Shown here in pieces: positions 8,425-32,412 of a DNA stretch of 49,095 nucleotides. The first letter of the stretch is position 1; each line of letters begins with the position of its first letter. The position numbers and the translations under genes are program-made. The notes under the pieces were generated by a model that saw only the letters and a list, made by a program, of their open reading frames with translations, searched no databases and had not been told where the DNA came from. The DNA comes from Euglena gracilis (taxonomy: Eukaryota). The stretch lies in contig CP154954.1 in assembly GCA_039621445.1 (NCBI GenBank), positions 9,612,634-9,661,728 of the forward strand, written 5' to 3'.

Positions 8425-9373
8425 ATTGTTCTGGGGCTCCATTTGCATTAGTCCTAGTGGTGGAAACATCAAGGTGGCCATTGGTGGAAATGGGGGGGGG
8501 GTACACCGGACTCAGGACAAAGTCCGCGCCCCCGCCCCCCGGACTTTGTCACCCTTGAGTCCGTCGTAGGGTACGCCGACTTTGTCCTGAGTCGGAGGGG
8601 AGGGTACACGGACTTAAAATAACAAAATCCCTTGTGTTACCCACCAGTTTTGGGGGGCAAATCCCTTGTGTAACCCAACCCCGGGCCCCAAAATAACAAA
8701 ATCCCTCGTGCTGCCCTAACGTTTTGGATGGCAAACCCCTTTGTTGCCCAGCTGCCCCAGGGCCCCAAAATAACAAATTCCCTTCTATGTTGGCAACATA
8801 CTTGGGGGCTACCATGCCCCCCCGCATAAGACCCCCCCTCGCTCGGGAGCCAAAATCCCAGGGTGGGGTCTTATATGGGAGGGGTCAGGGGTGTAGAAGT
8901 AATTTTTTCTCGGGGGGGGGGGCGAGATCCTCGACAAGACCAAATATATACATTTCTTCGGTAGTGCTTTTTTTGAAAGATGGCATTGAATGTAACAAAA
9001 AAAAGTGGCAATATTTGGCAGTATGTCACTGATCCATCACAACTTGGAAGCAGACCGCCATTTGGTGCGTATCACAACGTACCTGTGATACATTAATGTG
9101 ATACATGAAAAGAATTGTGGTGATACACATGTGAAACATTAAAAAAAATTTGGTGATACATATGTGATACACAAATTTTCCTTGGTGAAACATAGAATAA
9201 AAGTTGTGAAGCACAAACAAATTTGTAAGATGAAAAATTTACAGACAAACATAAGACGCTCACCCGGGCTTGAGGAACTCAGGTTCCCATGGCTGTTCCA
9301 GCCCCACTTCCGTGGTGCTAACCTGTCTGCCAAGACAGGTCCCTGCCATCTTTTTTTTTCATCTTTGAGGCAT

Positions 9374-11260
9374 GGAGCTGGGGTATCTGGCTAGCCGCGG
9401 CTAGCCGCGGCTGGCTGGCTGGCAAAAAAAAAGGAGGAGGTCTGGCCAGCCATGGCCAGACACGGCTGGCTGGGGGATTTAGAGGAGGAGGAGGTCTGGC
9501 TGGATTCTGGGTTGAGGATTGGAAAGAGGAGGAGGAGGTCTGGCTGGCCGCGGTGGAAAATTTTTTCAGTTCTTGTGGCGAACTGGGTAAGTCCTAATTC
9601 TGGGTGCTCTTTACAAAAAAGATTTTCCAATGACGAAAACTTGCACACAGCGGGGTTTGAACCCGCGACCTCACAGTTCCGAACTGCATCTTGCACCAAT
9701 TATACTGTGTGCACGATACACTTCGGAATACCAAAAGAGAAAAAGGACCAGTCCATGAAATGAAGCGAAGCGGAAGAAAGTTCGGGAGAGAACACATCTT
9801 GAAAAAATACCACATTTTGAATGTTGTAGTATGCAAATTTCTGTTCTAGTTAATTTGGTGCATGGGGGCACATCAAAGACCGAAGCACATGTTTTTTTTT
9901 GAAGGAATTATGAATCACCTACACGCAAAGAAATGCTTGCATTCCCAATCCTTCTCCTTCGGTGTCACAATGCCATTTCGTGTGGAAGCGGCGTGGGATG
10001 GTTATGATGAAAGTACAGGGTGCTGAAATGAAGTGAAAATACAGGAACTTATTGCTTTGTGGAAAGAGGGCCAACATCACCACATGCAGGCCACTCAGGC
10101 CTTTGCTCTGAACACATACACATTCGATCGAGCAGAGGCCTGCCTGCAACACGGTGACAGGCCCTTGGTGGGTCTACTTGTTTTCTGCTTGGTACTTCTA
10201 CCTGAAGACAGATTTCACAGACATTTTGTCCTTAGATGCTGGTTTTCGTCTGAAACTGCCATTTCTGTTCCTTGCGTTCTTTATTTGCTGTTCAACAAAT
10301 GTTCTTGGAAGCCAAAAAATTGGGGGAGAAGTTTTTCAATCTGGCAAACGACCCAAAATTTTGCATTTCACATTTTGTGCAATGTCATGGTTTTTTTGGG
10401 GGGCCAGATGTGCTGGCCAGTTTTGGGCCACATGTTCTGGCCAGTTTTGGGCTAGATGTGGTGGCCAGCTTTTGGGCCACAGGATTCTCTCAGGAAGGAG
10501 TTGTTTGGGTGCCATTCTCTTGGAAAGGGGGGGCAGAAAAGCAGTTTGTTTGCATTTTTTTTGGCAAAATATGTGTTTTTCAACGAGAAAAATGTCAGTA
10601 AAGTTTGACTGTGCCAAAAGTTTGTTTACTTTTTTGACCTTCGTTTATTTCACCCCCCCCTCCTCAAAAGTATGAGTTTTTAGGACGGAAAATTTTGAGA
10701 TTTTTTGTGGAAAAAAGTTTTTTCCCTTCAAAAATCACGTGTTTTTGGGTTTTATTTTTCAAAAAAAACTTTCCTGGCCAAAATCCCCGTTTCCCCGAAA
10801 TTGGTGAAAATGTTGTGGTGGGTGTGGGGGGGGGGGTCGACTGCCCCCCTTCGGTTCTTCCGGCGCAGTCATATGGTGCTGCCGTCAAAAATGTCGAAGA
10901 AATGTTCATCCACCCGAAAAATAAATAGTCTCGTCTTGCGCAGCACTTCTGGTGCCGTGGACCCCGGTTACTGCTGCTCGCTGTTGATTCATCCGCCTGG
11001 GTGGATGTTGTGATTAAACCTGGCGAGCGCAGCCGTCGAGCGTAATAAAAACCGAGGAGGTTGCGTCGTGCGGTCTTCGCCCTATATAATTTTTGAAGCC
11101 ACTAAAAAAAGAGGAGGAGGCGCCCCAGCCGCGGCCAGCCACGGCCAGCCGCGGCTGGCCGTGGCTGGTGGCTGGGAGAAAAGAGGAGGAGGAGGTCTGG
11201 CTGGTGGCTGGTGAAAAAAGAGGAGGAGGAGGTCTGGCTGGCCGTGGGGACCCCAGCTCC
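9374..11260. mobile_element. TIR element with GGAGCTGGGG termini and 3-bp TSD (CAT)
   Basis: CAT|GGAGCTGGGGT ... ACCCCAGCTCC|CAT; subterminal GAGGAGGAGGTCTGGCTGG repeats; second copy at 25286-27621. Confidence 0.8.
9642..9712 (-). tRNA. tRNA-like sequence (anticodon CGG, Pro-like), probably a pseudogene or SINE head
   Basis: 7-bp acceptor stem GCACACA/TGTGTGC plus A; T-arm GCGGG-TTCAAAC-CCCGC; variable loop AGGTC; 7-nt anticodon loop TTCGGAA. The D-arm is ~2 nt short and poorly paired. Confidence 0.55.
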
Positions 11261-11429
11261 CATGCACAGGGTTTTGTTTTTGGGCGGGTCCCCAGCTGCC
11301 ATATTTTTTTGTTTTTTTTGTAAGCAACTTCTCAGCTGCTATTTTTCAAAAAAAATTTGGACAGGATGAGAGAATAATGGAACGAAATCTTCTCCACTGT
11401 GCTGGATGAAGCTGCCAACTGACCCTTCT

Positions 11430-12050
11430 CGTCTTCTATAAGACGCCTCACCCCCGCTGGAATTGCCATGCGTGCCATGTCCTCAATTGTGAAGAATCCA
11501 AAAGTTTCCTTGCTGTCAAAACCCTCCTTCCGAAGGGAACCTTCAAAACGACGGAAGACAGGATTTTGAGACAACAACTCCTCAAACCATGGACAAGAGT
11601 GATCACTTTCTTCCTTCCGTGTTGAAACGACCTCCAATTGCCATCTCTCTTGGAACCTCCTCAACCCCGACTGATGCCACGAGGATGATTCTGTAGAGGA
11701 TTCGAGGTCCCACTGCGCCCCACTCTCTTCGGAAGAAGCGGAAAGACTACTTTCTGTGATGGAATCCCCACTCGAATTGGAAACAGAAATTCCATCAAAG
11801 GACGATGTTGCCTCGTCGACAGCACTGCACTGGGCAGTTCTCTGAGTTTCTTGTGCACCTCATCAAAAGAGAATTTCATGCCTGTCAAAGGCCAAGGTGG
11901 GCACTTTCAATTTTTTTTCTGGGGGGGGCAGATTCTGATGAAAAAACCCTCTCCAGGAGGCGAATCGGGGATGCCCTCGTCCTCCACGTTGCACAGCTCC
12001 GCGTAGCTGTCCTCCAAAGCATTATCACAAGAAAAGTGTTCCATTTGTCT
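11430..12050 (-). pseudogene. Degraded coding remnant ending in a SAM-like domain
   Basis: WFEELLSQNPVFRRFEGSLRKEGFDSKETFGFFTIEDMARMAIPAGVRRLI (11430-11595) follows the SAM pattern; upstream frames are broken by stops and frameshifts. Confidence 0.4.
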
Positions 12051-15000
12051 GCAGAGAGGCAAAGAAACAAGGATGAAAAGCGGAACAGAAAGGGGAAAAA
12101 CATTCAATGTAAAAATGTAAAAAATCTAAAAAAAATTGGTGATACATATGCGATACATTAAAATATTTTTGGTGATACATATATACATATATATGATACA
12201 GTAATACAGTAATTTGGTGATACATATATGTGATACAGTAAAAAAAATTTGGTGATACATATGTGATACATTAATTTTTAGGCTGTGATACGTGCGATAC
12301 GTAAAAAAAATTTTTGGTGATACATTCTAAATGGAGGTCTGCTTGGAAGCTTTCAAGCCGCCCGAAGGGCGGCATAACGGTAGTGCTTTTTTTTAAAAAA
12401 AAAGATGGCGTTGAATGTAACAAAAATAATCGTGGCAATTTTTGACGTTGTGTCACCGATCCATCACAACTTGGAAGCTTTCAAGCCGCCCGAAGGGCGG
12501 CTAAACGGCAGCCATTTTTACATTATGCCACCAATCCATCACAATTTGGGAGAGCCGCCCAACAACGGTGACGTCTTTTTGTGTTTTAGGATTTGTGTCA
12601 GAACAAAAAAATATATTGCCGCCAAAAGGGCGGCTGACGGTAATCCAAAAACCTTCCTCAAAAAGAGCCAAACTTGTCAACAAAAACTGTGTGCTTTTGA
12701 AGAAAAAAAAAAGTGCTTTGGAGATGCATGTTTTCCTGTTGCCGAGATTTTCGCCTCTTCCGAGCCATGAGTTCAGGACGTCTTTGCCCGCCCTAAGGGC
12801 GGCGAGACGGTAGCGATGTCCAACAGCAAAACACCCAAAAGTACAATGAAAAGTTGAGTTCTCAGAGTGAGAAATTGAAAAAAGCACGAACAATGTGATG
12901 AGTGAATCACACACTTTTCAAAAAATTTTCTTCCCAAAATCTCGGGGGGGGGGGCGGCCGTGCCCCCCCCCCGACCCCCCACTTCTACACCTATGGGGGG
13001 GGTCTTATATGGGGGGGGGGGGTCGGTCCCGGCCAAAGGGCTGGTCGAAGGCCGGCCAGGGGAGTGTCTTATACCGGGGACCGACAATTACCGCGGGTGG
13101 GTAATTCCCGCTCGGGCTTAAACGCGGTCATTTTAGGCGCGCTGTATTACCGCGCGCTCCACGGCCGAAGCGCGCTAATAAACCCCGCGTTAATAAACCC
13201 CGCGCTATAACCAAATCGCGAACAATCCGCCATTCCTTATTTTTCTCTTCCACAGGTACGCAACGTGCCCTGGTGAAGAATCATTTTTTTTTTGCATCAG
13301 ATGTCTGAGAAGTGAAATCTAGCGGGATTCAAGTTACAAGGATGTGTTTATCAAGTTTATGTTATCAAGAGAGATGAAGTTTGTAAGTGAACTTATTGGA
13401 AGGGTATGGGGGGGTCTTACATGGGGGGGCATGGTAAGTTGTTTTTGTGGCTCACTTTGGCGACCTTTCGTGACCGTGGGCCGACCCTAGGGTCGGCCCA
13501 CTACCACCCCCCCCCCCAGGCCAGATCCTGGAACCGGGGGGGGGGAGGTCGTGGGGTGGGCCGACTCTAAGTCGACCCTACGGTCGGCCCACGACCCTAA
13601 GGGGGGTTGGTACGCCGTGGCGAGGGGGTCCGAATAGGGGGGGGGGGGGGGGGGGGTAAAGGGCGTGGCGAGGGGGTCGGCGACCAGGGGGGGGGAGGGG
13701 TGTACCATGGTCGCCAACAAAATTTTCGTTCAAAAAATCGCGAAAATCGCCGGTGGCGTGGCGAGGGGGTCCGGCTAGGGGGGGGGGGAGGGGGGGGAAA
13801 TGGCGTGGCGAGGCCCTCGGAGAGGGGGGGGGGGGAGGGGTGTACCAACCCCCCTAAGTCGACCCTAAGCTGGCGACCCTAGGGTCGGCCCACTAGGGGG
13901 GTCTCCCGGACGCCACCTTGGGCGACCTTTGGCGACCTTTGGCGACCGTGGGCTGACCCTAGGGTTGGCACCCTAGCCCCCCCCCCCAGGCCAGATCTAC
14001 CCCCCGCTCTGGACGGTGAAGATGGGGGAGGGATGGAATAGGTGGCGATGGTGAGGCCGACTGTGGGCTGGTGCTAGGGAGGGGACGGGGTGAGGGGGGA
14101 GCACTGACACGGCGGGTGCACCTCGGGGAAGGGAAGTGGGAATGGCCGGCAGTGGGGACTGCGGCAGCACCATGGGGAGGGACAGGCCCGCCCGGGCTCA
14201 CCGAGGGAGAGATCCTTGGCGGCGACTCCCTCGGATCACAGCCCAGCGCAAACGCCGATGACGTGTGGGCCAGCCTGCTTGTGCTTTGGGGGCGTCGGAG
14301 CGTCGGAGCTGCCCTCGGGGGGGGGGGGAGCAGGGAGACTCGCCCAGGCTCGCTGGGGGCGTGAGCCTTGGCGGCATCAGCCCCAGGTCATTGCCTTTGC
14401 TGCTCACACATGGGAGGCACAGGGGCATCCCGTTGTCCCTGGATGTTGGGGGGCATGGGCAGAATTGATGAAGTGGACTAGAGGTGGAAGGTCAGAGATC
14501 TGTATTTTTTTCAAAAAGAAAATGCAGATGATGTCAAACAAAACAAACAATTCAGGGCATGGGGGTTGGTTGAGGCTTCGCGAAACTTGGCAAATGACAG
14601 CAACGTAACTTTCCAACTTAGTTAGGGCTAGGTTGGTCTCCGCAGCGGGATTTGAAGTGTTTGGGGGAGTAAGGCTATATACAGGGCTAGGGTTGTTCAA
14701 TTCATGAAAACTGCTCTGAAAGAAAGATAAAATCTGTGAAACCTTTCATTTTCCGTTCATGAAAGTTAGGAAACACCCTTAGTACGCAAATCCTAAATGT
14801 GAACCCTGGTAGGACCTAACTAGACAGCCAGCCGTAAAAACGGTGGTGGGGCGAACCGAATCCATCCAGGCGCAGTGTGTGCAAGGAGTGAGGAGGAGGG
14901 TGGGTGGAGAAAAGGGTAGTACAAGTGAGAACGGGGGCAGAGAGCGCAACGTCCGGCCGAAGCCACGGCCAGCACCGCTTGACGGAGCGCGAGGTGGGCG

Positions 15001-15589
15001 AGGGTGTAGGAAAACCAGAGGCACAGGGTCAAGCTTGTCACTTACCGAAGGCCATCTCAAAAGGCAGCAATGGTGTGACCCAGTTCCTTGGTTATGAGTA
15101 GAGCACCCAGTTGGGCGGCCACCCCAGAAAACAAGGCCAGCGACAGGCCCTGCTGCAAGGGTGATCAATTAATTGACTGTCGGGGGGGCAGTCAATTAAA
15201 TAACTTGGGCCTCTAGTTAACTAGTTAACTGTTCAAAAATGAAGGTTAGGCGCTCTCCCGGGCTTTAGGAAGAAAGGCTGCACCAGCCCCACATTATTGT
15301 GATGCTGACCTGTGAGCCACCACAGGCCCCCGCCTTTATATGCTCCTGCTTTGCGGCTCCCCTGCTGTTTTTTTTTGGCCGGGGTTTTCTCTTCAGGCGG
15401 GTCCCCGGCAACTCTGGATGCTCCGAGAGTTATTTTTTTTACAGGAGCTTTTTTTTTTGAGATGCTCTTTGAGGAGCTTCTTTTGATGTTTTTTTTTTTA
15501 GGAGCTTCTTTTGATTTTTTTTTTGAGGAGCTGTTTTTTTTTTTTTGAGGAGCTGCTTTTCATGAGTTTTTTTTTGAGAAGCTTGCTTT

Positions 15590-15850
15590 TCAAACGGAGA
15601 TCACACCGAGAGGGACAACGTTCATTCTCACAAACACGAGAGCATGGACAGACTTGTCACTCAGACTGTTGCGCATCGGGCTATGCAGGACCTTAAGATG
15701 GCTGAAAGCCCTTTCCACAGCTGCTTCAGTTGGAGCAATGGACAGCACTCGCAAGGCAACCTGCGCCAGCTGTGGACAAGACACCACTCTCAGCTTCCAA
15801 TACTGCTCCAGGTCAGTGTCCTCAGAAGTGGTGGGGAAGGGGGCTGCCTT
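15590..15850 (-). pseudogene. hAT transposase C-terminal dimerisation-domain remnant
   Basis: YWKLRVVSCPQLAQVALRVLSIAPTEAAVERAFSHLKVLHSPMRNSLSDKSVHALVFVRMN is the canonical hATC pattern (W..P.L...A...L..P......ER.FS.......RN.L). The upstream part is replaced by other repeats. Confidence 0.85.
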
Positions 15851-17458
15851 CAGGGAGAAAAAATACAACGAATCGGCCCCGGGGGTCAAAATGGGGGTAC
15901 CCAAAATGGGTCCAAAAATGGGTTGTTGGCATATTTGGGGGTGGTTTACATTTGGACATGCCCAAAAATTGCCAAAAATTGCCCAAAGTGGGCCCAAAAT
16001 GCTCGATTTTGGGCTGATTTTGGTCACTTCCTCAAGGGATTTTGGGTTGGTTCGGTCATCCAAGTGGGACCCCCCATCCAAGTCCCCTTTGTACTCCCTG
16101 GCCAGTTTTTTTTTTACTCCCAGGAAATGGGGTCGAACCAAGGCTTCCACTGAAGTTTTTTTTCCACCAGTTTTTTTTCCTTCCACTGGGACAGAAATCT
16201 TCAATTTCACTAGAGGGGCATTGAAGGTTTGCTTTTGTTTTGGCCCACAACGCCTAGATTAATCTGGAGTGGTGCGGAAAATGCATGTCACGAAGCACCA
16301 ATTTTTGCCAATTCGGGCCATTTTGAGCTGAGTTAGTTCTAATAAGCAAGTTCCTCATATTTCCGGCCATTTTAGGCCTCTTTGGTGGTTTTCAGACATT
16401 TTCACCATCTTTGGATATTGCTGGCTATTTTGAGGGCCGTTTCAGGTCATTTTAAGTCATTTTGAGCATGTCCGCCGTTTCTTGGGCTGCTTTTTTTTTG
16501 CATTTTTTTGCAACCATTTTACGTCATTTCTGTGGTTATTTTGGTTCAGTTTTGGGTGCCGTCCAACCAAACCAATTTCAACTGGAAAAGGGCGGGGTGG
16601 GTGTGCTACAGCACTAACCCCCCAAACCTGACCCCCCCCTCCAGGAAGGGGTCAAAAACGCCACCCCCGCCTGTCCACAGCACCACTGGTCTGTGCTAGG
16701 GCACTTTTGGCCGTGTGCCCTACCCCCTGGGGGGAGGGGGGTCGGATCGGGAGTGCCTTGGAGTGCCTGCCCAGGCAGGCACTCCCCCTCGGGGTGGGGT
16801 CCAGGCTTGTGCTTAGTTGGGTGCCTACCCCACGGGGGGGGGGGTGCTAGGGGCAAGCACCCCATAGCACCTGATCCGCCCCCCCCCCCGGGGGGGGGTA
16901 GGGTTTTGGGGGGTGCCTGCCCCTAGCAGGCACCCCCTCCGACCCCGGCGCCGAAGGTGCCGGGGGCCCGGAAAAGGCCATTTTCAATGAAAATTTTCTG
17001 GGTCCCCCCCTATCCCCCCCGGGGGGGTGCCTGCTAGGGGCAGGCACCCTATAGCACCCCCCCCCCCCCGGTTGGTAAGCACAAGCATGGTGGGGTCGGC
17101 ACCCGACTAAAATACAGCCTGCACTCCATACCTTGACCCCACACAGCCTCGAAATCAAACCCTGGCCGAGATTGAGCAAGCATGCATCCCACACCTGATG
17201 CGGAGGTCGAAGCGTTGGGATGAGGGAATTTATAACGACAGAATTTTGTTGCGGTGTTGAGGGCAGAAGACCAGGTGAGCAATAGTTCCCTCTGATGCTG
17301 GCTTGTCCGGGGTTCAGGTCGAGTGAAGCTTGAATATAACATCCAGTTGAAAAAAAAGTGTTGGTGCGGCAACCCTTTTCAGATTGGATTGAAGATGCGT
17401 CAACGAGCAAAAATATAATTGCATCAAATAGCTTTATTAGTACTATTAATATTATTAT

Positions 17459-17616
17459 CATCACCACCACCACCACCACCACCACCACCACCACCACCAC
17501 CACCACCACCACCACCACCACCACCACGATCATCATCATCATCATCGTCATCGTCATCGTCATCGTCATCATCATCATCAGCATCATCAGCAGCAGCAGC
17601 ATCATCATCATCATCA
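17459..17616. repeat. Compound microsatellite (CAC)n-(CAT/CGT)n-(CAG)n
   Basis: Direct reading. Confidence 0.95.
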
Positions 17617-18823
17617 TTGGATTCAAAAAAAATGTACCAAACCACAAATCCACCGCATTGGTGAACTATGTGCACAACAACAGAATGATAACGTCAACTG
17701 CATCAGGGGTGTTTTGTTGCAGATGCTGTGACCATAAATGAGCTCTAAGAAGAAGATGCTGCTTTCAAATAATTCAAATGAAAACATCTTTTACATCCAA
17801 TTCAGGAAAGAACAGCCACTTCCTAAACTGAATTTTTATACATTAAATGTGTCCAGACAGTTCAGCACTTGGTTTCACCCTCCCTGGGGGGGCGGGGGTA
17901 CCCTGTGCTATGGGGCAGGAAGTTTCAGTTGGGAGGACCCTTGGGACCTTCCTGGGGGCGTAGTTAGCAAATTTTCGGCTGCAGCCAGTGGAAATCCCCG
18001 TGGCCCGCCCTGGGGCACTCAAGCAAAGCGATGGCGACAAATATTTGGGTAAATAATGAATCACATCCCAAAAAGCTGAGTTTTAACTTTCTTGCCCCCC
18101 ACCAACCAGTCCTCATAGGGTATCTATGGCCAGGCTCCTTTTAAAGAAGGCTGCACCCCCCCCTCCGGCGCCGAAGGTGCCGGGAGCCAGAAAAAATGGC
18201 CTATTTTCAAAAGAGAGGTCGATAAAAAATTGTTTGTCCCCAGCCCAACATGACAAGTTTATGGGGTGGGCCCCATACTCGGCCTTACTTTGCGAACCTT
18301 CCTAACAAGCCGGCAATGCCTAATTGTATGCTGTGCCGAAATGAGTGTGCGCCATTCAGGCACAAAAACAAGGCAAAAAAGTGCCCCCCCCCCCACAGAA
18401 AACACCAACACCAAATTGCCTGGGCACAGGCCGAAATCCGACCCGGGGGGGGGGGGGTAGTGCCTGCCTGGGCCTGCACTTATAGGCACTCCGAACCCCC
18501 CTCCCCCCCGGGGTTGGTAAAAAACTGCCTGATGGAGTGTCCCTCAACCCTCTCGATTTGTGACGCTCCAACCACCCCTGGTGACTGAACACCAAACCCT
18601 GGCCTCAGTCCTCCCCCTTCCCTTGGCCAGCCAAAAACAATGTGTTTCAGAAAAATAGACCGTACCATACGGCCCAACTGCTGTTGGACGACTTGTTTTC
18701 ATGTGTGGGAAAAGCTCGGACAAGTTGCAGATTTGGTCGAGGGTACACTTATATTCTCATTGTGTCAGCAATGCTAGTTCTCAAAGGCCTGTTGGTGGAT
18801 CTCTCCAGCAAAGGGTCTTATTT

Positions 18824-19316
18824 TTGAATTTTTGTGAACTCACCAAACCCTTATCGAACCCGCGTTTGGGCTGATTTTTGAGACAGCAAAAGCCTTAGGT
18901 CTTCGCCCAAACACGGTATCAGAACAAGAACAGCGTTTTGGGCCAAGGTTTTTAGGGGTGCCGGAGGCGACCGGCCGCGACGCCTTCGGCGGCGCGGTTC
19001 CCATCCCCAGGCTCCCCCTAACAATTGGCCCAAACACAGTTTGTAACAGAGAAAAATTTTGAACCCGCCTAACGTCGTCTTGATACTTGATTCCCAGGGT
19101 GCCAAAATTTTTTCAAGCATACAATATAATATACCAACAGTAGCAGCAGCAACAATGAGGAGTAGGACGACAACAACAACGACAGTATGATGATTATATA
19201 GCCACCACATGTAGCCATCATGTAGCCACCACATTATTTGATTAATAATGCTACTACTACTACTACTAATAATATTTGTCCGGATTTGGTTGATAATTGC
19301 AATGTTTCATTGCCTT
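18824..19316. repeat. Dispersed repeat; the second copy at ~23064-24860 is split by the 23371-24602 insertion
   Basis: Shared GAATTTTTG..CACCAAACCCTTATCGAACCCG.GTTTGGGCTGATTT start and ATATTTGT..GGAT.TGG..TAATTGCAA end, with a variable trinucleotide-rich middle. Confidence 0.75.
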
Positions 19317-20054
19317 GTGAATTTTTTTTTGTTCATTTCACATGGCATCACAAGAAATTTCAGTTTTATGCCTTTTTTTTTGCAAATGAGCGCATGATTT
19401 CTGACTGATCACAACCACTCACAACCTTCAAAGAACCAGTTTGCTGGGCAACTGCTCTTTGATCCTTTTCTCCCTTCAAAGCCCTGTGAATGGCAGGATG
19501 TCCGTTCAGGCACCAGCTTTGGTTTTCTGATTTGTCCACTCCTCAGAATATACCAAGGATGAATCATGGGACGTTTTCCCAAACTTTCTGTCCACGCAAA
19601 CAACGAGCGCTTTGGCCAGGCCATTGCCCAGTGGCATGCTGAAGCAGTCTGGTCCTCAGCCATGCAATCATGGCCCGACCCTCCTCTCCCGGGGCGGGGG
19701 AGGAGGTCGGTGGTGACTGACTGCTTTTTGACCCAAACCCCTTCCCCTCTGGAGGGCAAACACCCGCCAAAAATGGTCTGTCGCCGAAGGCAAAGGGATT
19801 TTTTTTTCGGCCATTGGCCTCGCATTTATTGGCCAATTTCCCTTAGATTCCAGAATGACCGACCCTGGCGGGGGGGGGGGGGCAGTGACTGACAGGTTTT
19901 TGAAAGAGTGGAAGTGACCCCCTCCCCGGAGGTCGATAAAAAATTGTAATTGTGGCTTCTAAATGCAGCATTGGATGAGATGAGGCCAGAAGGAACGTCG
20001 GGTCTGGGTGTTCTTCCCCCTTTGTCGCCGTTCGCCCACAGGTAGCCCCGCCCC

Positions 20055-20443
20055 CAGGGTTTGATATAAGGAGGGCGTACATGGTTTAGGTGGGGGGGTG
20101 TCCCCCCCCCACCCCCCCCCCTCCTGGCCCGCAGGGGGGGTCCAGACCATCCCCCCACCTGCCAGGGGGGTCCGGACCGACCCTGGGTGGGTACCCGGGA
20201 CCCCCCCCAAAAGGGTCAATTTTTTCCTCCGGCGCTTTGCGAATTTTTTTTGCATTTTTGGCAAATTTTTGCCCAAAAAGTGCCCAAAATGGCACTTTTG
20301 GTCGTCAAAGGGTCAAAAATTTTCATTCACCCTGACCGCACCACTGTTTAGGTGGGGGGGGTGTCCCCCCCCCCCCCCCCCCCCCCCTTGCCCGCCGGGG
20401 GGGGTCCGGACCCCCCCCCCTCCTGTTCTTAGATCAACCCCCG
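20055..20443. mobile_element. hAT-type MITE, 8-bp TSD CCCGCCCC
   Basis: CAGGGTTTGATATAAG ... CTTAGATCAACCCCCG, flanked by CCCGCCCC at 20047-20054 and 20444-20451. Confidence 0.8.
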
Positions 20444-20882
20444 CCCGCCCCCCCCCCCCTGCGCCGACGCAAGCGACGCTGGCCCCGCCGCCGCGCAGCT
20501 GTTCTCCCTGCTTGTCCTCCTGCCACCCCGTTTGCTGTTTTCTGTCCCATCTCAGAGTTCTCCAAGCCTCACTTGTGCCACTGTCCCCATGGGTGCGAAG
20601 TCCGACCGCAGCGCAGGGCCAAAATGGAGATGGGAGGGGGCGACAACGTCTTTGTGTGGTTTTTTTTGTTCCAGCGGGAATGAACTTCTAATTTCTTTTG
20701 GAAAATCGATTGTGTGTCCAACCTGACCTTGTCAGTTTGATGTTTGAAGTTGGCGACCCCGTGAGGCTATCGCTTTCCCTGATTGCGACAGTTTGACAAA
20801 TCTCCCACTTGTCGACCTGCTAGTAAGAAGTTCGAACGCTTCTTCACTAGCTGGAAATGAAGAAGGCTTTGAGCAGGTCTCT

Positions 20883-21845
20883 ACTACAAAAAAGGGGTGG
20901 CGGACGCCGGTTCTGTCCAAAACCCGGCGTTCCAAACGCCGGTTCCGTCCGAAGGACGGAACCGGCGTTTGGAACGCCGGGTTTTGGACAGAACCGGCGT
21001 CCGCCACCCCTTGTTTAAAGCGGCGTTTTAGAGACGCCGGGTTCAGGACAGAACCGGCGTCCCCACCCTTCGGTCAAAGGACACTCCCAGGACCAATCTC
21101 CGACCACTTATCTGCAATGTCACGCCACCTTGCATTTCACCAAAATCCGGCGATCGCGAGGGTATTTCTGGCTGTGTCGATCGTCTGGGTACAAAGTCAC
21201 CCCTCAATCGAAAGCTCTTTTCATCAGACGACTGGCGATCACCACCAAATTCAGCGACGCCGCCTGGAGCTCTTACTTTCTGTCACTGGGAAATCCTAAT
21301 TTCACAAGTCTGGTGCCCCCCCAGGACCCCTCAGGTGGTCGCTTCGAAGAGAAGAAACGTTTCTGTAAGGTTTATTAAGCATCTTAAACCAAAAATCACT
21401 GAAAACTACCACAAATTTCGACTAAGATTCTGGCCGATCCGACGATCGCGAGCGTATCTCTGGCTGCGTGCAACGTTAGGGTACCAAGTTACCCCTCGAT
21501 CGAAAGCTCTTTTCAACAGACGACCAGCGGTGCTCATCAGATCTTTCCACGCCGCACGGTACTCTTTATCAAAATCTGGGCCAATTTCACCAAATTTGGA
21601 CATCCACCCCACTGGTCCCCAAATGGCAAAAATCATTGTCCTACATGGTTAAAACAGTCATACCAGGAGCTTTGGGCCACTTTTGGGCACTTTTGGTGAC
21701 ATTTTTAGGAATGAAAATCTGACGCCGGGTTTTGGACAAAACCGGCGTTCCTAACGCCGGGTTTTAGGACAGAACCGGCGTCCGAAAACCCGTGGGGGGG
21801 GACGCCGGTTCTGTCCTGAACCCGGCGTCTCAAACGCCGGTTTAA
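20883..21845. mobile_element. Hairpin plus asymmetric-TIR element (same architecture as 7124-8616)
   Basis: Palindrome ~20888-21016 with a cGAAg loop at 20951-20953. TTAAAGCGGCGTTTAGAGACGCCGG (21015) is inverted at CCGGCGTCTCAAACGCCGGTTTTAA (ending 21845). Confidence 0.65.
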
Positions 21846-23644
21846 TGTGAGTGGGGTTCCCAGAGTTGGGGTGATGGGTCTGGAACCCTCAGCCCACCTT
21901 CCAAGAAGGGTCTAGGGGGCATCTTAGGGGAGGGGCTCTCTGGATTTGGTGTTCGGCCCAACGTGATGGGTTTGGAGTTTTTGTTTTTAATATTGGCGCA
22001 GTAGGGAAAGCAGGACTCTGCTTCCTTTGTTTGAATTTTTGTGACGTAATGTTGTTGCAGAGAAAGCGTCGAACAGTCCCTGGTCGTTGCACGTCATCAA
22101 TTCATTACTCTCATCAGCCAAGCAGATGACGTGAAAACCACTGGCCGTGCACAAAGAAGGCAGGCAAACGTTCGCCCATCACATGGCGTGTTCAAGTGAA
22201 CATTGCACACAAATTTCATCACCACGCATTGACGGTGCAAATCAACGGTTGGCGTGCGGAAGTGCGTTCGCCAGCCGTCACAGACGAGGAGATGGTGTCG
22301 CACAACTGATGTGTGTTCGTACGAGATATAGCACCACACAAACAAGTGAATGATTAAATGTTTGTCCGCGCATTTTCACCCACAACAAACTGTGTTTGTG
22401 TGCACAAATATGCGCACCAACACGCGTATCACAAAACCTCCTAGGTTGTGGTAATCGTCAGTCTTCTTTAACATGATCATGTTGTTCGTGCCCATGCACA
22501 AACCATCCGCATAGAAGTTTCCCCAAGATGTTGCTGCGCATATTGCGCCCACAAACAAAGTTTGTTTGGGGGCGCTTCAGTGAGGAAGGACATGCCATTT
22601 TAACTTCAGCGTTTTGCGTTGTGTGCACGCAAATGCACCCACAAACAAAAATTTCGTGCACAATGCAAATGGTACAAACACATCAGTTGTGCGACGGCTG
22701 GCCATCACAGTATGTAGTATGTGATGCAATATCGCTCCGTGTGTCCTGACGGGTGGCTGTAGTACCGCAGCCAGTTCAGGCAGCACGTCAGCACCAGTAC
22801 CAATTGTCGTAACAGCTGGTGTGTGCTTCCCCCCTGTTTGACATCCAAGAGCCCTCTTCGCGTCACTCGGCAAGCAACATGCACACCAAACCACCTGGAG
22901 CTGATCCTCTAATAGGGCGTTGCAACAGTTCATAAATTGTTTTTCCGTGTATCAGGGAACAGGGCCCCAGGGATTTCGTAAAAAATGTGAATTTGCGCAA
23001 ATCGCCCATTCTAAAGAACCCTTCAGTGCGAATCCCGCCGCATAAGTCCGGCAGAAGGTCTGATTTTTGAATTTTTGCTAACCCACCAAACCCTTATCGA
23101 ACCCGTGTTTGGGCTGATTTCGCGACAGCAAAAGTCTTAGATCTTCGCCCAAACACGGTATCCGACCAAGAACAGCGTTTTGGGCCAAGGTCTTTAGTGG
23201 GCCCGGGGGTACCACCCACGACACCTTCGATGCCGAGGTTCCCATGCCCAGGCTCCCCCTAACATCATTCTTTGAACCCACCAAACATCATTTTGACGAT
23301 TTTGATTCCCAAAATACCAAAAAGTTTCAAACTTACAATACAATACACCACCACCACCAGCAGCAGCAACCAGGGATTTTCACCGGTTCGTGCCACGAAC
23401 AATCACGAACAATCACGAACCAGCACGAACTTGAGACTTTGGCAAAATCACGAACAATCACGAACAATCACGAACAATCATGAACCGGATTTTTGTCACC
23501 CTTGCAGAAATGTCTGCTTCTGAGAATGAAGGTGTTGTTCAATCAACCAAAGAGAAAAGATCATGTCGTTCAGCCTCGCCAGTCTCGTCGATGCCAAGAA
23601 TCGTCAAAAGACGGGGGAAACCAAATTTTAGCTCATTTGCCCTT

Positions 23645-23828
23645 TACCACCCCCCCCCCCTTTATTGTCCCACCGACCTGCCCCCGGGAGGCGCGACCGG
23701 ACAATAAAGGGGGGGGGACAATAAAGGGGTACCAAAGGAATTTCATTGGCCGGGCCAAAAAAACCCCCCGTCGGCCGGGGCCCAGGGACAATAAAGGGGG
23801 GGGGGAGACAATAAAGGGGGGGGTGGTA
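23645..23828. mobile_element. TA-flanked MITE
   Basis: TA|CCACCCCCCCCCCCTTTATTGTC ... GACAATAAAGGGGGGGGTGG|TA. Confidence 0.75.
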
Positions 23829-24194
23829 AGTCCATTTGAGCCATTTTTTTTGGCTGGTTTTCTCCCATTTCGGGCATTTTTTTTTTGCGACAACCTTGGG
23901 CATTTTTGGAATTTTTGGGGCCAATTCATGGTCATCGTGGACATTCAGGCTTCATTTTGGGCAGTTTTTGGCAGATTGTCAACCATTTTTTAATTTCAAA
24001 TTTTTTGATAAATTAAGGAAATGCTAGGCTTTTGATATCATTTTAGGTTATGACCAGATTTTGCACTATGACCGTCACAAGGCCTAAATCTCCCGTTGGC
24101 TTTGGAAAAGTAGGGTGTTCACCAACATGGGGATTGAACACAATGAACATTTGTGTTTTTCATCCGCTGTAAAAGACGCAGACTCCGTCTTGAG

Positions 24195-24309
24195 CAGGGT
24201 TTGATGTAAGGAGGGCGTACAGGGTTTAGGTGGGGGGGTGTTCCCCCCCCCCTCCTGGCCCGCAGGGGGGGTCCGGACCACCCCCCACCTGTCCTTATAT
24301 CGAACCCTG
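24195..24309. mobile_element. 115-bp hAT-type MITE, perfect 8-bp TSD GTCTTGAG
   Basis: GTCTTGAG|CAGGGTTTGATGTAAGG ... CCTTATATCGAACCCTG|GTCTTGAG; same family as 20055-20443. Confidence 0.9.
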
Positions 24310-24683
24310 GTCTTGAGTCCCCGCCTGCGCCTCTTAAAAAAAACGGCGTCTTAAGACGCAACTCTTGCTGCATAAATCAATCAATGTGGATCTTTTTCCA
24401 TTGTCCAGTGTAAGGCTTTTTTTCGGAGCAAAAAGCAAATGACAGAGTGCAATGAGTACATGAGGAAATACCTATTTGCCAACAAAAACGGAAAACCGGG
24501 CGGTTTTTTGAAAGCACGAACACTCACGAACAATCACGAACAATCACGAACAATCACGAACCGAATTTCAGGCTTCCTAGCACGAACCGGTGGTAAACCC
24601 TGCAGCAACAATGAGGAGGAGGAGGAGGACGACGACAACAACAACACTGACATCAACGTTAATAGCAATGATGGTGATTCCAG

Positions 24684-24811
<128 letters not shown>

Positions 24812-25516: not shown

Positions 25517-26465
25517 ATATCGAAAACTGTGTCCCAGACGCCGGTTCGGGCGGGAAACCTGTGCCTGGGACGCCGGTTCGGGCGGTAGCCCGAACCGGCG
25601 TCCCAGGCACAGGTTTCCCGCCCGAACCGGCGTCTGGGACACAGTGTTTGAAACCGTGGCTAGGGGGCTCCGTTTTCATGCCCGAACCGGCGGCTAGGGA
25701 ATCACGGCCAATTTCGCCCAAAATACCCATGTTTGGGGCAGTTTTGGGCGATTTTGGCCCAACTGGGCCGCCGGTCAAAAATGGCAGATTCCACACTTAT
25801 GAAGCCATGTTACCCATTAATCGAAAGCTCTTCTCAAGAGCTTTCGACAGATAATCACAGGATTCGGCCATAATGCACGCAGCGCTTATTTTCAGCGATC
25901 GTGTAGTCCAAAATTTGACATCCTAATTTGTCAAATCCCACAGTTCAGGTTGCAAATTGCATATCAAACGAAAGGTCTCGCCAACACCTTTCGCTTGGTA
26001 CCCACAGAACTCAGCCAGACTGCAAAGCGACCTCAAAATCAGCGATCGCATTTTTCCGCATTTTTCGGACCCCATTTGCATATCTGAAATTCCACTTTTC
26101 AGCAGCCATGTTACCCATCGATCGAAAGCTCTTCTCAAGGGCTTTCAGCAGATGACCTTAGATTTCAGCCATGCTGTGTGGTATTCTATTTCAGAAATTC
26201 TCCAAAATTGGCCAAAAGGAAACTTTTCCTCAAAAACCCCCAATTTTTGGCCCAAGACCACCCAAAAACTGCGCAAATGTGATTACCACATGTCTACAAA
26301 CCCTTTTGGACACTTTTTGGCACTTTTTATTTTGGGTCCCCCAGACGCCGGTTTCCCGCCCGAACCGGCGTCTGGGACGCCGGTTCGGCGCAGAAATTTC
26401 CCGCCCGAACCGGCGTCCCAGACGCCGGTTCGGGCATGAAAACGGAGCCCCCAGACACGGTTTCA
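25517..26465. mobile_element. Third hairpin plus asymmetric-TIR element, no TSD
   Basis: Palindrome ~25522-25650 (loop GGTA, 25584-25587). TGAAACCGTG (25649) is inverted at CACGGTTTCA (ending 26465). The empty site ATTCT|GGGTG is present in the sister host element at ~9597-9606. Confidence 0.7.
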
Positions 26466-27067: not shown

Positions 27068-30000
27068 CAACCTTTTCTCAGGAGTTCTTTGGGTGCGATT
27101 CTCGTGGAGGGGGGGGGCGCAAAAGGGTTTTTGCGTTTTTTTTGGCAAAATTTGTGTTGGGGGGCTTTTCTGTGCTGCTCGGTTGTTTTTCTGCCCCCCT
27201 CCGTCTTCTGGCGGAGTCATATAGTGCTCCCGTTGCTAGGATGTTGATCGTTCAATGAAACCGGAAGTGCTTCCCAGCTCGAATAACTAAATAAGACGAG
27301 ACTACTTTTAGTTGCGGTTCCGACTGCTCGCCGTTGACACATCCGCCGGCATGGATGTTGCGATTAAACCTGGCGAGCACAGCCGTCGAGCGTAATAAAA
27401 ACCGGCGAGGTTGTGCCGCTGTGGCTTTGCCCTTCTTTAAATTTTGGCGCTCTCTGGTGGGCACTAAAAAAGGAGGAGGCGCCCCAGCCGCGGCCAGCCA
27501 CGGCTAGCCGTGGCTGGCGGCTGGGAGAAAAGAGGAGGAGGAGGTCTGGCTGGTGGCTGGTGAAAAAAAGAGGAGGAGGAGGTCTGGCCGGTATCTGGCT
27601 GGCCGTGGGGACCCCAGCTCCACAGGGTGACAGGGCTCTGGGAGGGGTGCGGGTTGATGGGTCCGGTGTGCAGGGGGTAGGGGGAGGAGGGGTCCAGGGT
27701 GCAGAGGTGTGACGGTGCAGAGGGTGTGTAGGGGTGGTGTGCGGCGGGCAGGGCGGTGGGGTGAGACGCCCGCAGGGGTTGTCAGTGGGGGCTTGGTTTA
27801 CAATATGTATTGGCTTGTGTGCGTGCAACCCAGGACTTTGACCTTGGTGTTTTTGTGAGGCACTAAAACAGATATTTGATGTTGATGCGTGCAATTGCGC
27901 AAATAAAACGTATGGTGTTGTGCGTGCCAGGGTAGGAGAGGGGTGCCGGTGGAAGAACCAGATGGTGGAAAGAGATGCGGATGAGAGGACCACACACAAA
28001 ACAAAAAACTGAACCAGACAAACAAACCCCCGGCGGGCGGGGATACGCTTGCCGCCCGAGCGCCTGGCTGAACAGGACGCGCGCTGGTTGTCAGTGGGGT
28101 GGTACTTGGGGGAGGGGTATTTTTTTTTTGTGACACGGGTGAGAGGGGCAGCACGGCACGAGAGGGGGAGGCAGGTCACGAGAGGGGTGTCACACCAACC
28201 CCCCCCCAAAAAAAAACTACACAAGTCCACCCCCCGGCAGGATAGAGGGCATGGGGATGACGTAGGCGGTGGGTGGCCAGCGGGGGGCGGTGTACACGGA
28301 CACCACGGCAGTGGGGCACCGTCTCCAGCTGGCAGGCAAATGACAAAACAACAAAGTGTGCGTTTTACTTGCGCAATTGCGCGCATCAACATAACATGAA
28401 GATGAATTCTTTTATTTGAAATAAAAATTCTGAGAGGGGACAGACCATGGCCGGGAGGGGACTGAGAGGGTGAAACACTTGTAACAGAAACATTTGCGCA
28501 AATGCGCGCATCAAAAGTGTTTTACAAAAAAAAGAGATAATGAGTATAGCATGCAGCGGGGAAGAGAACCAACAGAAAAAAAAAACTTTAGAGACAGGCC
28601 CACAGCCAGTCTCACTTCTTGTGCTTGGAGAGCCGCTTGGCGAGGCTCTCCGAGGCGGCTGCCGGTTTGCCACCGGGCTTCGGCAGCCCGCGGCGGACGG
28701 GGCCTGCCGGGGCCTCCTCCTCCTCGGACTCCTCCTCTTCGGACTCCGCCTCCTCTGGCGCTGGCGCTGCGGCCGCCGCTGCCTGCGACGACGTTGCCTC
28801 CGCCGCCACCTTGGCCTTGGCCGCGTCGATGATGTGCTTCATCGCCGGGGGTACTTCTTTGGGGGGTTCGAGGAGGTGGTAGGAGACCCCCTTGGGGCCT
28901 TGAGGCCTCCCCGGTCCGGGTGGACGGATCAGCCCCGCTTGCTTCCACCGGGTGTCCTCCTTGCCTTTGCCCCTTCCCCTTCCCCTCCCCCTTCTTCTCC
29001 TCCACCTTCTTCTCCTCCCCCTTCCTCTCTTTACCCTTCTGGGGCTCTGGCTTCCTGAACCCAGGGGTGATCTCCTCGATGGTGTCCTCCTCCTCTTCCT
29101 CTTCTCCCTCCCCTGCCGGGACTGCGGGAGCTTCGCTGGCGATCGGCGAGGAGGTGTTGGAGGTGTCGCTGCTGCTGCTCTCCTCCGCCTCCGGGTGCCG
29201 GCTGGGCTGGGCCACCGGCGGCGGCACGATGGCGGGGCTGGCCTCCTCAGGCTGGCTGGCGGGCGGGGTCAGCTCCGGGGTCTCCCGGCCGGGGGCGGTC
29301 ATCTCCACGTCACTGCCCTCCTCCGGGCTGTCCACTGCCTCGGCCTTCTCCCGTCGGGCCTTGGGGGGCGGGGGCCTGCTGGGCTTCTTCTCAGGCTCCT
29401 TCTTCCGCCGCTTCTTCTTGTTGTCACCCCCCTCCTTCTGGCGCTGCTCCTTGGTCTGGCGGCGCCGCTCCTCGGACTCCTTCGCCCTCCGAGCTGTCTC
29501 CTCAGCGGCCAGGCGGAGCTTGTCCTGGAGGGCGGCGTTCTCCAGGGGGACCCACAGGGGGTCCCCCCCTTCCAGGGCGGCCAACAGCAGCGGCAGCATG
29601 GCGGAGGTGACGGGCCGGGGCAGCGTCACCGTGTTGCCCATGGTCTGGGCGATGTCCTCCAGGCTGCTGGCGGAGTCCTCCGCCACCACCAGCACCTCGG
29701 GGGGGCTTGGCCGCCCAGGCCGCCACCCGGGCCGCCACCGCCACGTCGGCGGTCTGGATCACCATGGCGTTGGCCGCCTCCATCCGCCGCACCACCCTCC
29801 GCCACAGCCACTCCACGCAGAGCCAGTGCAGCCCCGCCCTGCAGCTGGACTCCACGTCCCACTCCACCTTCGGCAGCACCTACGAGAGGAGACAGACATA
29901 CATAGAAAGAATAAAGCCTTTTTGTACAGAAGGTGGGCGCAATTGCGCAAATAAAACGGGAACACTTCATTAAAAGCAGGCGGCTTGGCACTGGTGACCT

Positions 30001-31017: not shown

Positions 31018-31028
31018 CCCCCTCCCTT
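31018..31028 (-). promoter_or_regulatory. Polypurine tract AAGGGAGGGGG
   Basis: Directly abuts the TG of the 3' LTR on the minus strand. Confidence 0.85.

Positions 31029-32376: not shown

Positions 32377-32378
<2 letters not shown>

Positions 32379-32412
<34 letters not shown>
32379..32412. repeat. (GA)n microsatellite in the retroelement 3' region
   Basis: Direct reading. Confidence 0.9.

Follow-up and report, generated by a model that had tools for sequence, protein, structure and literature searches.

The locus described here raises the question of whether the geometry of the nonconventional introns of euglenids, in which one cut lies three nucleotides outside an end triplet and the other lies five nucleotides outside its partner, derives from the 8-bp target-site duplications that certain transposons leave on insertion. 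Such introns make up ~70% of the introns of Euglena and 71.8% of those in E. agilis (Nomura et al. 2025, PMC12501133). According to the same source, the rule has been tested experimentally, the 3 nt before CAG being strict and the 5 nt after CTG tolerating a sixth; in the splice code, 3 nt separate the upstream cut from a 5' C-D-G triplet and 5 nt separate a base-paired 3' C-H-G triplet from the downstream cut, and the exon that follows starts with a purine. Release as circles has been reported for nonconventional introns (PMC11282704, a review). A MITE origin for them was proposed as early as 2013 (PMC3935182, Milanowski et al. 2014); in the literature, no paper was found that names hAT transposons, invokes an 8-bp duplication as the cause or observes that 3 + 5 = 8. 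That observation was made in a preliminary description of this DNA, and its arithmetic is right, the spacers being those of the tested rule (PMC12501133).

The window, by which we mean the whole stretch of 49,095 nucleotides that was analysed, is gene-poor, transposon-rich DNA of a euglenid-type nuclear genome. Its 225 ORFs gave no convincing Pfam match to a host gene outside transposon domains, the only DNA-transposase signature among them is that of hAT, and the RNA reads give no gene-like cover over 9000-24684. The features discussed below are collected in Table 1.

Table 1. Transposon-related features of the window (positions are those of the whole stretch).
Feature	Position	Strand	Details
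3291-bp non-coding element	9051..12341		CAGACCGCCATT...AATGGAGGTCTG; exact 8-bp duplication CTTGGAAG (9043-9050, 12342-12349)
hAT dimerisation domain, C-terminal	15620..15823	-	PF05699 Dimer_Tnp_hAT, E 8.2e-13
1699-bp high-copy element	16772..18470		CAGGCAGGCACT...AGTGCCTGCCTG, 17/20; flanking 8-mers match 6/8
288-bp MITE	16802..17089		CAGGCTTGTGCT...AGCACAAGCATG; exact 8-bp duplication GTGGGGTC (16794-16801, 17090-17097)
Empty paralogous target site of the 1232-bp element	19146..19153		GCAGCAAC once
Left duplication, copy 1	20047..20054		CCCGCCCC, low complexity
MITE copy 1, long form, 389 bp	20055..20443		Starts CAGGGTTTGATATAAGGA, ends ...CTTAGATCAACCCCG
Right duplication, copy 1	20444..20451		CCCGCCCC, low complexity
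1232-bp non-coding element	23371..24602		Ends CAGGGATTTTCACCGG... / ...CCGGTGGTAAACCCTG, 17/20
Left target-site duplication, copy 2	24187..24194		GTCTTGAG, with T2 and A7
MITE copy 2, short form, 115 bp	24195..24309		Ends CAGGGTTTGATGTAAGGA / CAGGGTTCGATATAAGGA, 16/20 terminal nt matching
Right target-site duplication, copy 2	24310..24317		GTCTTGAG, 8/8 with 24187-24194

Two copies of one MITE, starting with CAG, ending in CTG (CCG in copy 1) and standing between exact 8-bp duplications, had been described, and the sequence confirms them. Copy 2 runs CAGGGTTTGATGTAAGGA...TCCTTATATCGAACCCTG, with terminal inverted repeats CAGGGTTTGAT.. and ..ATCGAACCCTG (16/20). In copy 1 the left end is intact and the right inverted repeat, with its terminal CCG, has a 1-nt deletion; a G/C-rich core is present twice, on either side of a stretch of ~180 bp. 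The copies align at 87% over 107 nt, and neither the 115-bp nor the 389-bp sequence, both non-coding, has a Pfam match. A short form of copy 1, in which a joint 20125->20364 skips what lies between, occurs in eight DNA contigs of run X1. Summed contig depth in that run is ~946,000 for the MITE bin, whereas unique stretches have 50-150 per single contig; this measure is a crude indicator of copy number and is inflated by homopolymer runs. The copies belong to one high-copy, non-coding, cut-and-paste MITE with an 8-bp duplication and CAGGG...CCCTG inverted-repeat ends.

In all, the families in the window that are CAG-terminated and have 8-bp duplications, the MITE among them, number at least four or five. 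Besides the two MITE copies, no fewer than two other CAG-terminated elements are flanked by exact 8-bp duplications, and for a third the duplication is 7 or 8 bp; the exact 8/8 cases are 24195-24309, 20055-20443, 9051-12341 and 16802-17089. The third is the 1232-bp element, inside which MITE copy 2 is nested; the duplication that flanks it reads CAGCAAC (7 bp) or, with the final G taken as flank, GCAGCAAC (8 bp), and if it is 7 bp the 3+5 rule would heal the insertion wrongly by 1 nt. The flank of this element has a paralog in the window (18804-19023 vs 23047-23264, 86%), in which the target site is empty. Deletion derivatives of the 3291-bp element, whose ORFs have no Pfam match, exist elsewhere in the genome, with a joint 9097->12248 in three X1 DNA contigs and in four RNA reads (three in run X21, one in X22). 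The 288-bp MITE, one end of which is of the CAT/ATG type, is nested in the 1699-bp repeat, and X1 DNA contigs that join 16778..16790 to 17089 represent copies of the outer repeat without it. It is from the empty site, from these contigs and from the nesting that the elements are recognized as insertions. Different ends are seen in an element at ~23646-23828, CCACC...GGTGG, which has TA flanks instead.

The MITE copies present here are inert, intergenic, nested insertions, and are not introns. RNA depth at 24167-24684 is ~1 or less per strand, and 2281 of the 2289 aligned X21 reads fit only partly and so derive from copies elsewhere or from homopolymer runs; in the sampled ~5 in 100 of each RNA run, the 15 listed joints (of 628) include none that spans either copy. 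Copy 2 with its flanks satisfies the code 5'-N3-CDG ... CH'G-N5-6 / R (the slash here and below marking the splice junction), with complementarity, on both strands. Its RNA with flanks is predicted to fold with a minimum free energy of -81.4 kcal/mol (z -5.2) for the + strand and -72.4 kcal/mol (z -4.4) for the - strand, and in the predicted terminal stem CAG is paired to CTG. Copy 1 does not satisfy the code, CAG standing opposite CCG and the would-be exon position +1 on the + strand being C, a pyrimidine. As judged from its sequence, copy 2 is built like a precursor of a euglenid nonconventional intron.

Evidence from introns themselves comes from the published record. It had been expected that young nonconventional introns would show 8-bp direct repeats offset by three and five nucleotides around the end triplets, and on a small scale this is what is found. 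The junctions in two published supplements (~23 intron positions, 90 N-type rows) were counted by hand, so that the figures may be off by a few, in the predicted register, where the left repeat is five exon plus three intron nucleotides and the right repeat five intron plus three exon nucleotides. A perfect 8/8 repeat occurs at three of the ~23 positions (4/90 rows), each time in a lineage-specific intron: gapC intron 4 of E. agilis ACOI 323 (GTCCC/aac-CAT..ATG-gtccc/AAC), tubB intron 12 of Lepocinclis spirogyroides (TTCCT/aac-CAGGCC..GGCCTG-ttcct/AAC) and tubB intron 13 of Monomorphina pyrum (ATCCC/tcc-CATACC..GGTATG-atccc/TCC). The next base outward is mismatched where it is shown, which is on the left for Lepocinclis and Monomorphina and on the right for gapC intron 4 and Lepocinclis. 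The gapC intron is missing from the other strains, and its 'eight nucleotide direct repeats' were noted by Milanowski et al. 2016 (PMC4770533), who proposed break repair. The CAT..ATG ends of two of the three perfect cases lie outside the tested CDG/CH'G code. The remaining rows match at ~117/255 positions in the 2013 table and ~157/432 in the 2016 table; in many rows of older introns the identity is 0-3/8 by hand count, most keeping little. Residual identity is partly expected from the known pyrimidine/purine preference at both junctions. Position 2 is T in each of the perfect repeats, and position 7, the second exon base, is A in two of them; A stands at that exon base in 43 of 55 introns (PMC4770533). 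In the same compilation CAG +4..+6 pairs with CTG -8..-6, often extended to CAGG/CCTG (31/55).

We consider it probable that the MITEs of the window, with their 8-bp duplications and their most likely hAT mobilisation, have the anatomy of intron precursors, and that many nonconventional introns arose by insertion of elements of this kind. For an element bounded by its end triplets, the rule would remove the element together with 3 + 5 = 8 nt, equal to one copy of the duplication, so that the pre-insertion exon sequence would be restored. The ruler would have been fitted to the stagger, and not the reverse, because an 8-bp stagger is a trait of hAT transposons such as Ac/Ds and Hermes, and of the superfamily as a whole. 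It should be noted that knock-ins described in the cited literature splice without a flanking direct repeat, and the match of 3 + 5 to 8 is for this reason historical rather than mechanistic evidence. A stronger formulation, which we hold only tentatively, sees in nonconventional splicing a 'precise excision' at the level of RNA, fitted to hAT-like transposons, with spacers that sum to the 8-bp duplication of the transposase; the excised circle would carry the second copy of that duplication. The conserved CAG and CTG of the intron would then be the first and last bases of a transposon, and a part of the consensus at the junctions, with A at exon +2 and T at exon -4, may be a fossil of the target preference nTnnnnAn. 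If this is true, the origin of ~70% of Euglena introns could be traced to one transposon superfamily. The hAT-linked origin put forward in the preliminary description stands in part: the sum of the spacers and the three published 8/8 introns speak for it, no autonomous hAT with matching ends was found in the window, and we infer the 'hAT' part.

The assignment to hAT is made because the MITE has an 8-bp duplication and CAGGG ends like those of Ac/Ds, and because the window contains a transposase remnant, though an unlinked one; on these grounds a hAT-type transposase most likely mobilised the MITE. Inverted repeats of hAT elements start (C/T)A(G/A), as do those of the MITE, and the wider hAT end consensus is YARNG. 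The remnant reported near 15590-15850 is real, PF05699 matching residues 146-213 of the ORF at 15590-16258 (- strand), but it retains the C-terminal domain only, no other transposase domain being found in it. No longer relatives of it were detected, no credible pair of inverted repeat and duplication encloses it in the window, and it is physically linked to no MITE. Autonomous hAT elements with ends matching those of the MITEs were looked for and none was found in the window. Ac/Ds elements have ends (C/T)AGGGATGAAA and 8-bp duplications (PMC3260210), the 8-bp stagger being described for maize Ac/Ds and insect Hermes (PMC3260210, PMC10368747); the window ends that resemble them are CAGGGAT (1232-bp element) and CAGGGTT (MITE). 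The Hermes target consensus nTnnnnAn (PMC10368747) is matched at both positions by GTCTTGAG and CTTGGAAG, at T2 only by GTGGGGTC, at A7 only by GCAGCAAC and at neither by CCCGCCCC, five sites being too few to establish a preference.

Three other explanations deserve consideration. That the flanking 8-mers match by chance, the DNA being repetitive or of low complexity, and that the mobile element is not real, is scarcely credible. The tract around copy 1 is indeed rich in C, so that CCCGCCCC can be expected to recur there and the 8/8 match of copy 1 is weak evidence alone, and an unrestricted scan for duplications with inverted repeats yields many palindromic false positives. However, the GTCTTGAG of copy 2 is not of low complexity, the window contains the left 26-nt end of the MITE two times, where 100 shuffles give an expectation of none, and shuffled controls of the scan gave 0-1 matches at k=8; on its duplication and recurrent end, chance is rejected for copy 2. 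Among the 107 CAG...CTG pairs of the window with at least 11/14 inverted-repeat matches, for flank lengths k from 4 to 12, exact flanking repeats were found in two pairs at k=8, in one at k=7, in one at k=4 and at no other k, the chance expectation for k=8 being 107/4^8 = ~0.002 by our own arithmetic. The empty paralogous site and the insertion-free contigs of neighbouring elements of the same type also argue against chance. An unlikely, though not negligible, alternative is coincidence: the MITEs would be ordinary DNA-transposon relics, the introns would have another origin, such as the repair of double-strand breaks, and the ruler would merely happen to sum to 8. The window copies are neither in a gene nor seen spliced, splicing works without the repeat, many older introns show the low identities given above, and the 8-nt repeat has itself been read as a break-repair scar (Milanowski et al. 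2016, PMC4770533). Against this, the three 8/8 repeats directly abut perfect or near-perfect inverted repeats of 9-10 nt in the exact 5+3 register, where by our own estimate far fewer than 0.01 would be expected among ~23 positions with the junction consensus allowed for. Several element families in the genome share the end triplets and the 8-bp duplication, and break repair predicts neither terminal inverted repeats nor a fixed length of 8 nt.

The remaining alternative, that the link to introns is right and the superfamily wrong, overlaps our main reading and disputes only hAT, so its probability should not be summed with those of the other readings; we regard it as improbable. The transposase would then be Merlin or P-like; P-like elements have an 8-bp duplication and CATG ends. 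In favour of this alternative are the CAT/ATG ends of two of the three perfect introns and of one end of the 288-bp MITE, the lack of linkage between the hAT remnant and any MITE, and the two Merlin families of E. gracilis, both with 8-bp duplications (PMC8101967). Merlin ends have a conserved terminal 5'-GG, whereas here CAG and CTG are outermost; CAGGGAT and CAGGGTT are like the Ac/Ds end (PMC3260210), and no transposase signature other than hAT was seen among the 225 ORFs scanned.

Among known systems, the Merlin elements of Euglena gracilis are DNA transposons of the same species with 8-bp duplications (PMC8101967). The window MITEs do not fit the Merlin superfamily: the duplication length fits its 8-9 bp, but the terminal 5'-GG is missing, and Merlin has a DDE_Tnp_IS1595 transposase whereas the sole transposase trace here is hAT. 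Two of the five duplications fit the Hermes consensus at both positions (PMC10368747). Like Ac/Ds and Hermes, the elements combine an 8-bp duplication with short terminal inverted repeats starting (C/T)AG, and like Ac/Ds, maize Ds1, Ds-like MITEs and other non-autonomous hAT elements they include internal-deletion derivatives and small non-coding forms; unlike in Ac/Ds, neither an autonomous partner with matching ends nor an active transposase was found in the window. There is a precedent for Ds insertions acting as introns, reportedly described by Giroux et al. 1994. In maize, Ds is removed by the spliceosome at cryptic GT-AG sites, rarely with exact restoration of the sequence, whereas the structure-measured cut of Euglena would restore it exactly. 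Copy 2 resembles euglenid nonconventional introns (PMC3935182, PMC4770533, PMC12501133) in its triplets, stem, 3/5 spacers and purine, on both strands; the window copies differ from them in lying in no detectable gene and in having no splicing joint listed, and copy 1 fails the code. A parallel in kind may be drawn with the introner elements of Micromonas, dinoflagellates and Fritillaria, non-autonomous DNA transposons that become introns on insertion and likewise have inverted repeats and target duplications, the duplication helping exact removal (PMC11282704). Introners depend on the spliceosome, which recognises GT/AG-type sites that come with the element or with a duplication of 3-5 nt, whereas in Euglena the cut is measured from an RNA stem, the duplication length is 8 nt and the introns reportedly leave as circles.

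The two MITE copies of the preliminary description, each starting with CAG and flanked by a perfect 8-bp target-site duplication, are real, and both duplications are read directly in the sequence. The 26 nt at their left end are present twice in the window, against 0 times in 100 shuffles, and had 0 matches in metagenomes. The copies align at 87% across 107 nt, copy 1 being a long form in which the G/C-rich core is doubled (20084-20161 and 20346-20425); a short form without 20125-20364 is present in eight contigs of the DNA contig set. It should be noted that the duplication of copy 1 lies in a C-rich tract and, taken alone, is weak evidence; that of copy 2 is not low-complexity.

Further CAG-terminated elements are found nearby, as listed in the table. 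A scan of the window for CAG...CTG pairs with an inverted-repeat match of at least 11/14 returned 107 pairs, with exact flanking repeats at k = 8 in two, k = 7 in one, k = 4 in one and at none of the remaining k in the range 4-12; simple arithmetic puts the chance expectation at k = 8 for 107 pairs at approximately 0.002. A further scan, which took exact direct repeats as its anchor and required an inverted repeat, gained 20055-20443 and 16802-17089, and its mononucleotide-shuffled controls gave 0, 1 and 0 matches at k = 8. Many palindromic false positives at k = 6-10 (e.g. 45525-46690, 25539-26415 and 27899-28372) were discarded, and only elements whose flanks take no part in a longer palindrome were kept. 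The fifth element, of 1232 bp, has an empty site in the paralogous stretch 19060-19200, where GCAGCAAC is present once. Contigs of the DNA set that join 16778..16790 to 17089 are copies of the 1699-bp outer repeat (16772-18470) without the 288-bp MITE, and those that join 9097 to 12248 represent a shortened form of the 3.3-kb element, derived by deletion. The small element nested within the 1232-bp element is of a different MITE type, Tc1/mariner- or Stowaway-like, with TA on both flanks; the 8-bp duplication is thus tied to CAG ends, and not to every inverted-repeat element here.

Elements and other features of the window, and published introns with perfect repeats (¦, exon-intron boundary)
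Feature	Position	Length	Duplication	Ends and remarks
MITE copy 1	20055-20443	389 bp	CCCGCCCC, 8 bp, 20047-20054 and 20444-20451	CAG-terminated; left end as copy 2; right end one base short, terminus CCG
MITE copy 2	24195-24309	115 bp	GTCTTGAG, 8 bp, 24187-24194 and 24310-24317	CAG-terminated; begins CAGGGTTTGATGTAAGGA, ends TCCTTATATCGAACCCTG
3.3-kb element	9051-12341	3291 bp	CTTGGAAG, 8 bp, exact	CAG-terminated
288-bp MITE	16802-17089	288 bp	GTGGGGTC, 8 bp, exact	CAG-terminated; opposite end CATG
Fifth element	23371-24602	1232 bp	CAGCAAC, 7 bp (8 bp if the last G is flank)	starts CAGGGATTTTCACCGG; copy 2 nested inside
Small element	~23646-23828			CCACC...GGTGG; ends CCACCCCCCCCCCCTTTATTGTCCC / GGGAGACAATAAAGGGGGGGGTGG
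hAT dimerisation domain	15620-15823 (minus)			PF05699, E 8.2e-13
Ty3/gypsy (chromodomain) LTR retrotransposon	30360-43097		TAAC, 4 bp	TG..CA ends; LTRs 659 bp, 98.6% identity
Retrotransposon ORF	36372-38825 (minus)			PF05869, E 3e-13; PF00145, E 1e-6
Long palindromes	20888-21016; 21721-21842			63-nt arms, 98% complementary; 3-nt loop
(ATG/CAT)n microsatellites	17433-17624; 24685-24797			opposite strands
G+C-rich stretch	27364-29758			64% G+C; open frames 385 and 415 aa (minus), 373 aa (plus)
E. agilis ACOI 323 gapC intron 4				GTCCC¦aac-CATTACCTTG...CAAGGTATG-gtccc¦AAC
Lepocinclis spirogyroides tubB intron 12				TTCCT¦aac-CAGGCCTTTT...AAAAGGCCTG-ttcct¦AAC
Monomorphina pyrum tubB intron 13				ATCCC¦tcc-CATACCTCTG...CAGAGGTATG-atccc¦TCC

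According to passages of Nomura et al. 2025 (PMC12501133), in nonconventional introns 3 nt separate the donor end from CAG, and CTG lies 8 nt ahead of the acceptor end. The same passages report, from gene knock-ins in E. gracilis, a 3-nt spacer in which no change is tolerated, a 5-nt spacer in which +1 is tolerated and little else, and the need for a purine at the exon start, and state the code as 5'-N3CDG-/-CH'GN5-6¦R; the supplement describes the sliding analysis solely for -5..+5. Published junction sets comprise 413,446 introns for E. gracilis and 649,158 junctions for E. agilis. Were an element of this kind to lie in an exon, excision under the rule would take with it 3 nt from the end of the left duplication and 5 nt from the start of the right one, and the 5 + 3 nt left behind would make up a single intact 8-mer. 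Under the published rule, the arithmetic put forward earlier, in which 3 + 5 excision removes exactly 8 extra nucleotides and would heal the insertion, is correct. Copy 2 with its flanks agrees with every term of the code on both strands, and its RNA is predicted to fold as a hairpin, with CAG and CTG paired in the terminal stem (z -5.2 and -4.4). Copy 1 with its flanks fails the code.

Read mapping across 9000-24684 drew on two raw RNA-seq runs, one DNA contig set and one contig set that is possibly RNA. In most bins the RNA depth stays below 1, gene-like cover is absent across the interval and the RNA peaks coincide with homopolymer runs and high-copy repeats; reads of the RNA-seq run X21 are placed only partly in 2281 of 2289 cases, and the joints listed (15 of 628) occur in DNA contigs too. 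Taken together, these observations give no evidence of transcription or splicing for copies 1 and 2. At the poly-G/poly-C runs 13630-13660 and 20100-20460, hundreds of RNA-seq reads are stacked with loose homopolymer ends, most likely through an artefact of sequencing or mapping rather than expression.

Stop-to-stop ORFs were compared with Pfam in 225 queries, made in three batches with a few ORFs queried twice. The first batch took ten ORFs from among the longest, with a minimum of 120 aa. Outside the retrotransposon 209 ORFs reach 85 aa or more; the first 150 of these formed the second batch, and the other 59 were queried in the third along with six from within the retrotransposon. The sole convincing matches were PF05699 and the domains of one Ty3/gypsy retrotransposon, and these queries revealed no recognisable host gene in the window. 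The hAT transposase remnant noticed earlier at 15590-15850 is borne out by the PF05699 match, which covers the C-terminal domain; it is a mere remnant. Credible element ends were not found around it, the sole matches lying inside GCCGCGGC-type repeats, and a homology search for longer relatives gave none at E <= 0.001, which is weak evidence.

The Ty3/gypsy retrotransposon looks complete, and its minus-strand ORF combines a Dam-like N6-adenine methyltransferase domain (PF05869) with a C5 cytosine methyltransferase (PF00145), both adjoining an aspartyl protease; to our knowledge, retrotransposons bearing DNA methyltransferases are rare and reported from dinoflagellates and charophytes only. The near-perfect palindromes, approximately 700 bp apart, are built on a GACGCCGGTTCTGTCC-type unit whose family is very high-copy in DNA contigs. 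The second of the long microsatellites lies just outside the 1232-bp element, and the long open frames of the G+C-rich stretch gave no Pfam match.

Evidence of another kind comes from junction tables published as supplements to Milanowski et al. 2016 (PMC4770533) and 2014 (PMC3935182). Ninety rows typed N, N/I or I/N, covering approximately 23 intron positions, were compared by hand. Each left 8-mer joined the final 5 nt of the exon to the 3 nt that open the intron, and each right 8-mer joined the final 5 nt of the intron to the 3 nt that open the next exon. Among these rows, three lineage-specific introns have perfect 8/8 repeats in the predicted register, adjoining perfect or near-perfect 9-10-nt inverted repeats. 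One of these, gapC intron 4, is missing from the other strains; its 'eight nucleotide direct repeats' were remarked upon by the 2016 authors, who suggested double-strand-break repair as their cause (PMC4770533). The remaining rows show 0-6 of 8 identity. Approximately 117/255 positions are identical in the cross-species table minus two perfect rows, 157/432 in the within-species table and 42/127 at positions 1-4 alone, outside the known junction consensus; these are hand counts without a mismatched-pair control, in which an error of a few is possible, and the three perfect introns are independent of them. The young gapC intron and the Monomorphina intron have a common terminal motif, CAT(T)ACCT...AGGTATG, a hint that a single element family has been active in both genera.

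The proposal that nonconventional introns arose from MITEs dates from 2013 (PMC3935182) and has been restated in 2016 (PMC4770533), in a 2024 review that mentions 'TSD-like sequences' (PMC11282704), by Nomura et al. 2025, for whom the origins 'remain unclear' (PMC12501133), and in a 2025 diplonemid paper (PMC12621601). Within literature that included few subscription journals, we found nothing that names hAT or another superfamily for these introns, and nothing that makes a transposase the cause of the 8-bp repeats or equates 3 + 5 with the duplication; 'hAT' has 0 occurrences in PMC12501133 or in PMC11282704, while PMC12621601 has one match at a word start, to an author called Hatkevich in its reference list. 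A literature search for transposon annotation of the Euglena genome yielded nothing of use. Beyond the older MITE idea, no paper that we found explains the geometry in a concrete way that can be checked, with 3 + 5 as the 8-bp insertion scar, together with a named transposon type. The hAT-linked origin suggested in the preliminary description is a sound, testable sharpening of the existing hypothesis. It gains real support from published junctions, in the form of the three perfect introns, which their authors read otherwise; the window itself is no demonstration of it. The window elements belong to a hAT-like MITE class, as ordinary and inert representatives. If the proposal is true, it shows how one transposon family can be neutralised by its host to the point of making up most of the host's introns.

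As to the superfamily, CAT/ATG ends in two of the three perfect introns speak against hAT. P-type elements have CATG ends and make 8-bp duplications. Merlin elements of E. gracilis likewise make 8-bp duplications, a further point against hAT, but their ends carry a terminal GG (passages of PMC8101967), whereas the window elements are CAG-ended. Target preference can be compared with that of Hermes, given as nTnnnnAn in passages of PMC10368747: T stands at position 2 in all three perfect published 8-mers and A at position 7 in two, and the five window duplications have each of these in three. Across introns more widely, the second exon base (repeat position 7) is A in 43/55 and G/C stands at +7/-9 (CAGG/CCTG) in 31/55 (PMC4770533); by hand count, exon position -4 (repeat position 2) is T at approximately 11/23 intron positions. 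Given the rest, hAT is probably the superfamily concerned, and in its favour we count the likeness of the window ends, CAGGGAT... and CAGGGTT..., to those of Ac/Ds, described in passages of PMC3260210 as making 8-bp duplications and having the ends (C/T)AGGGATGAAA.
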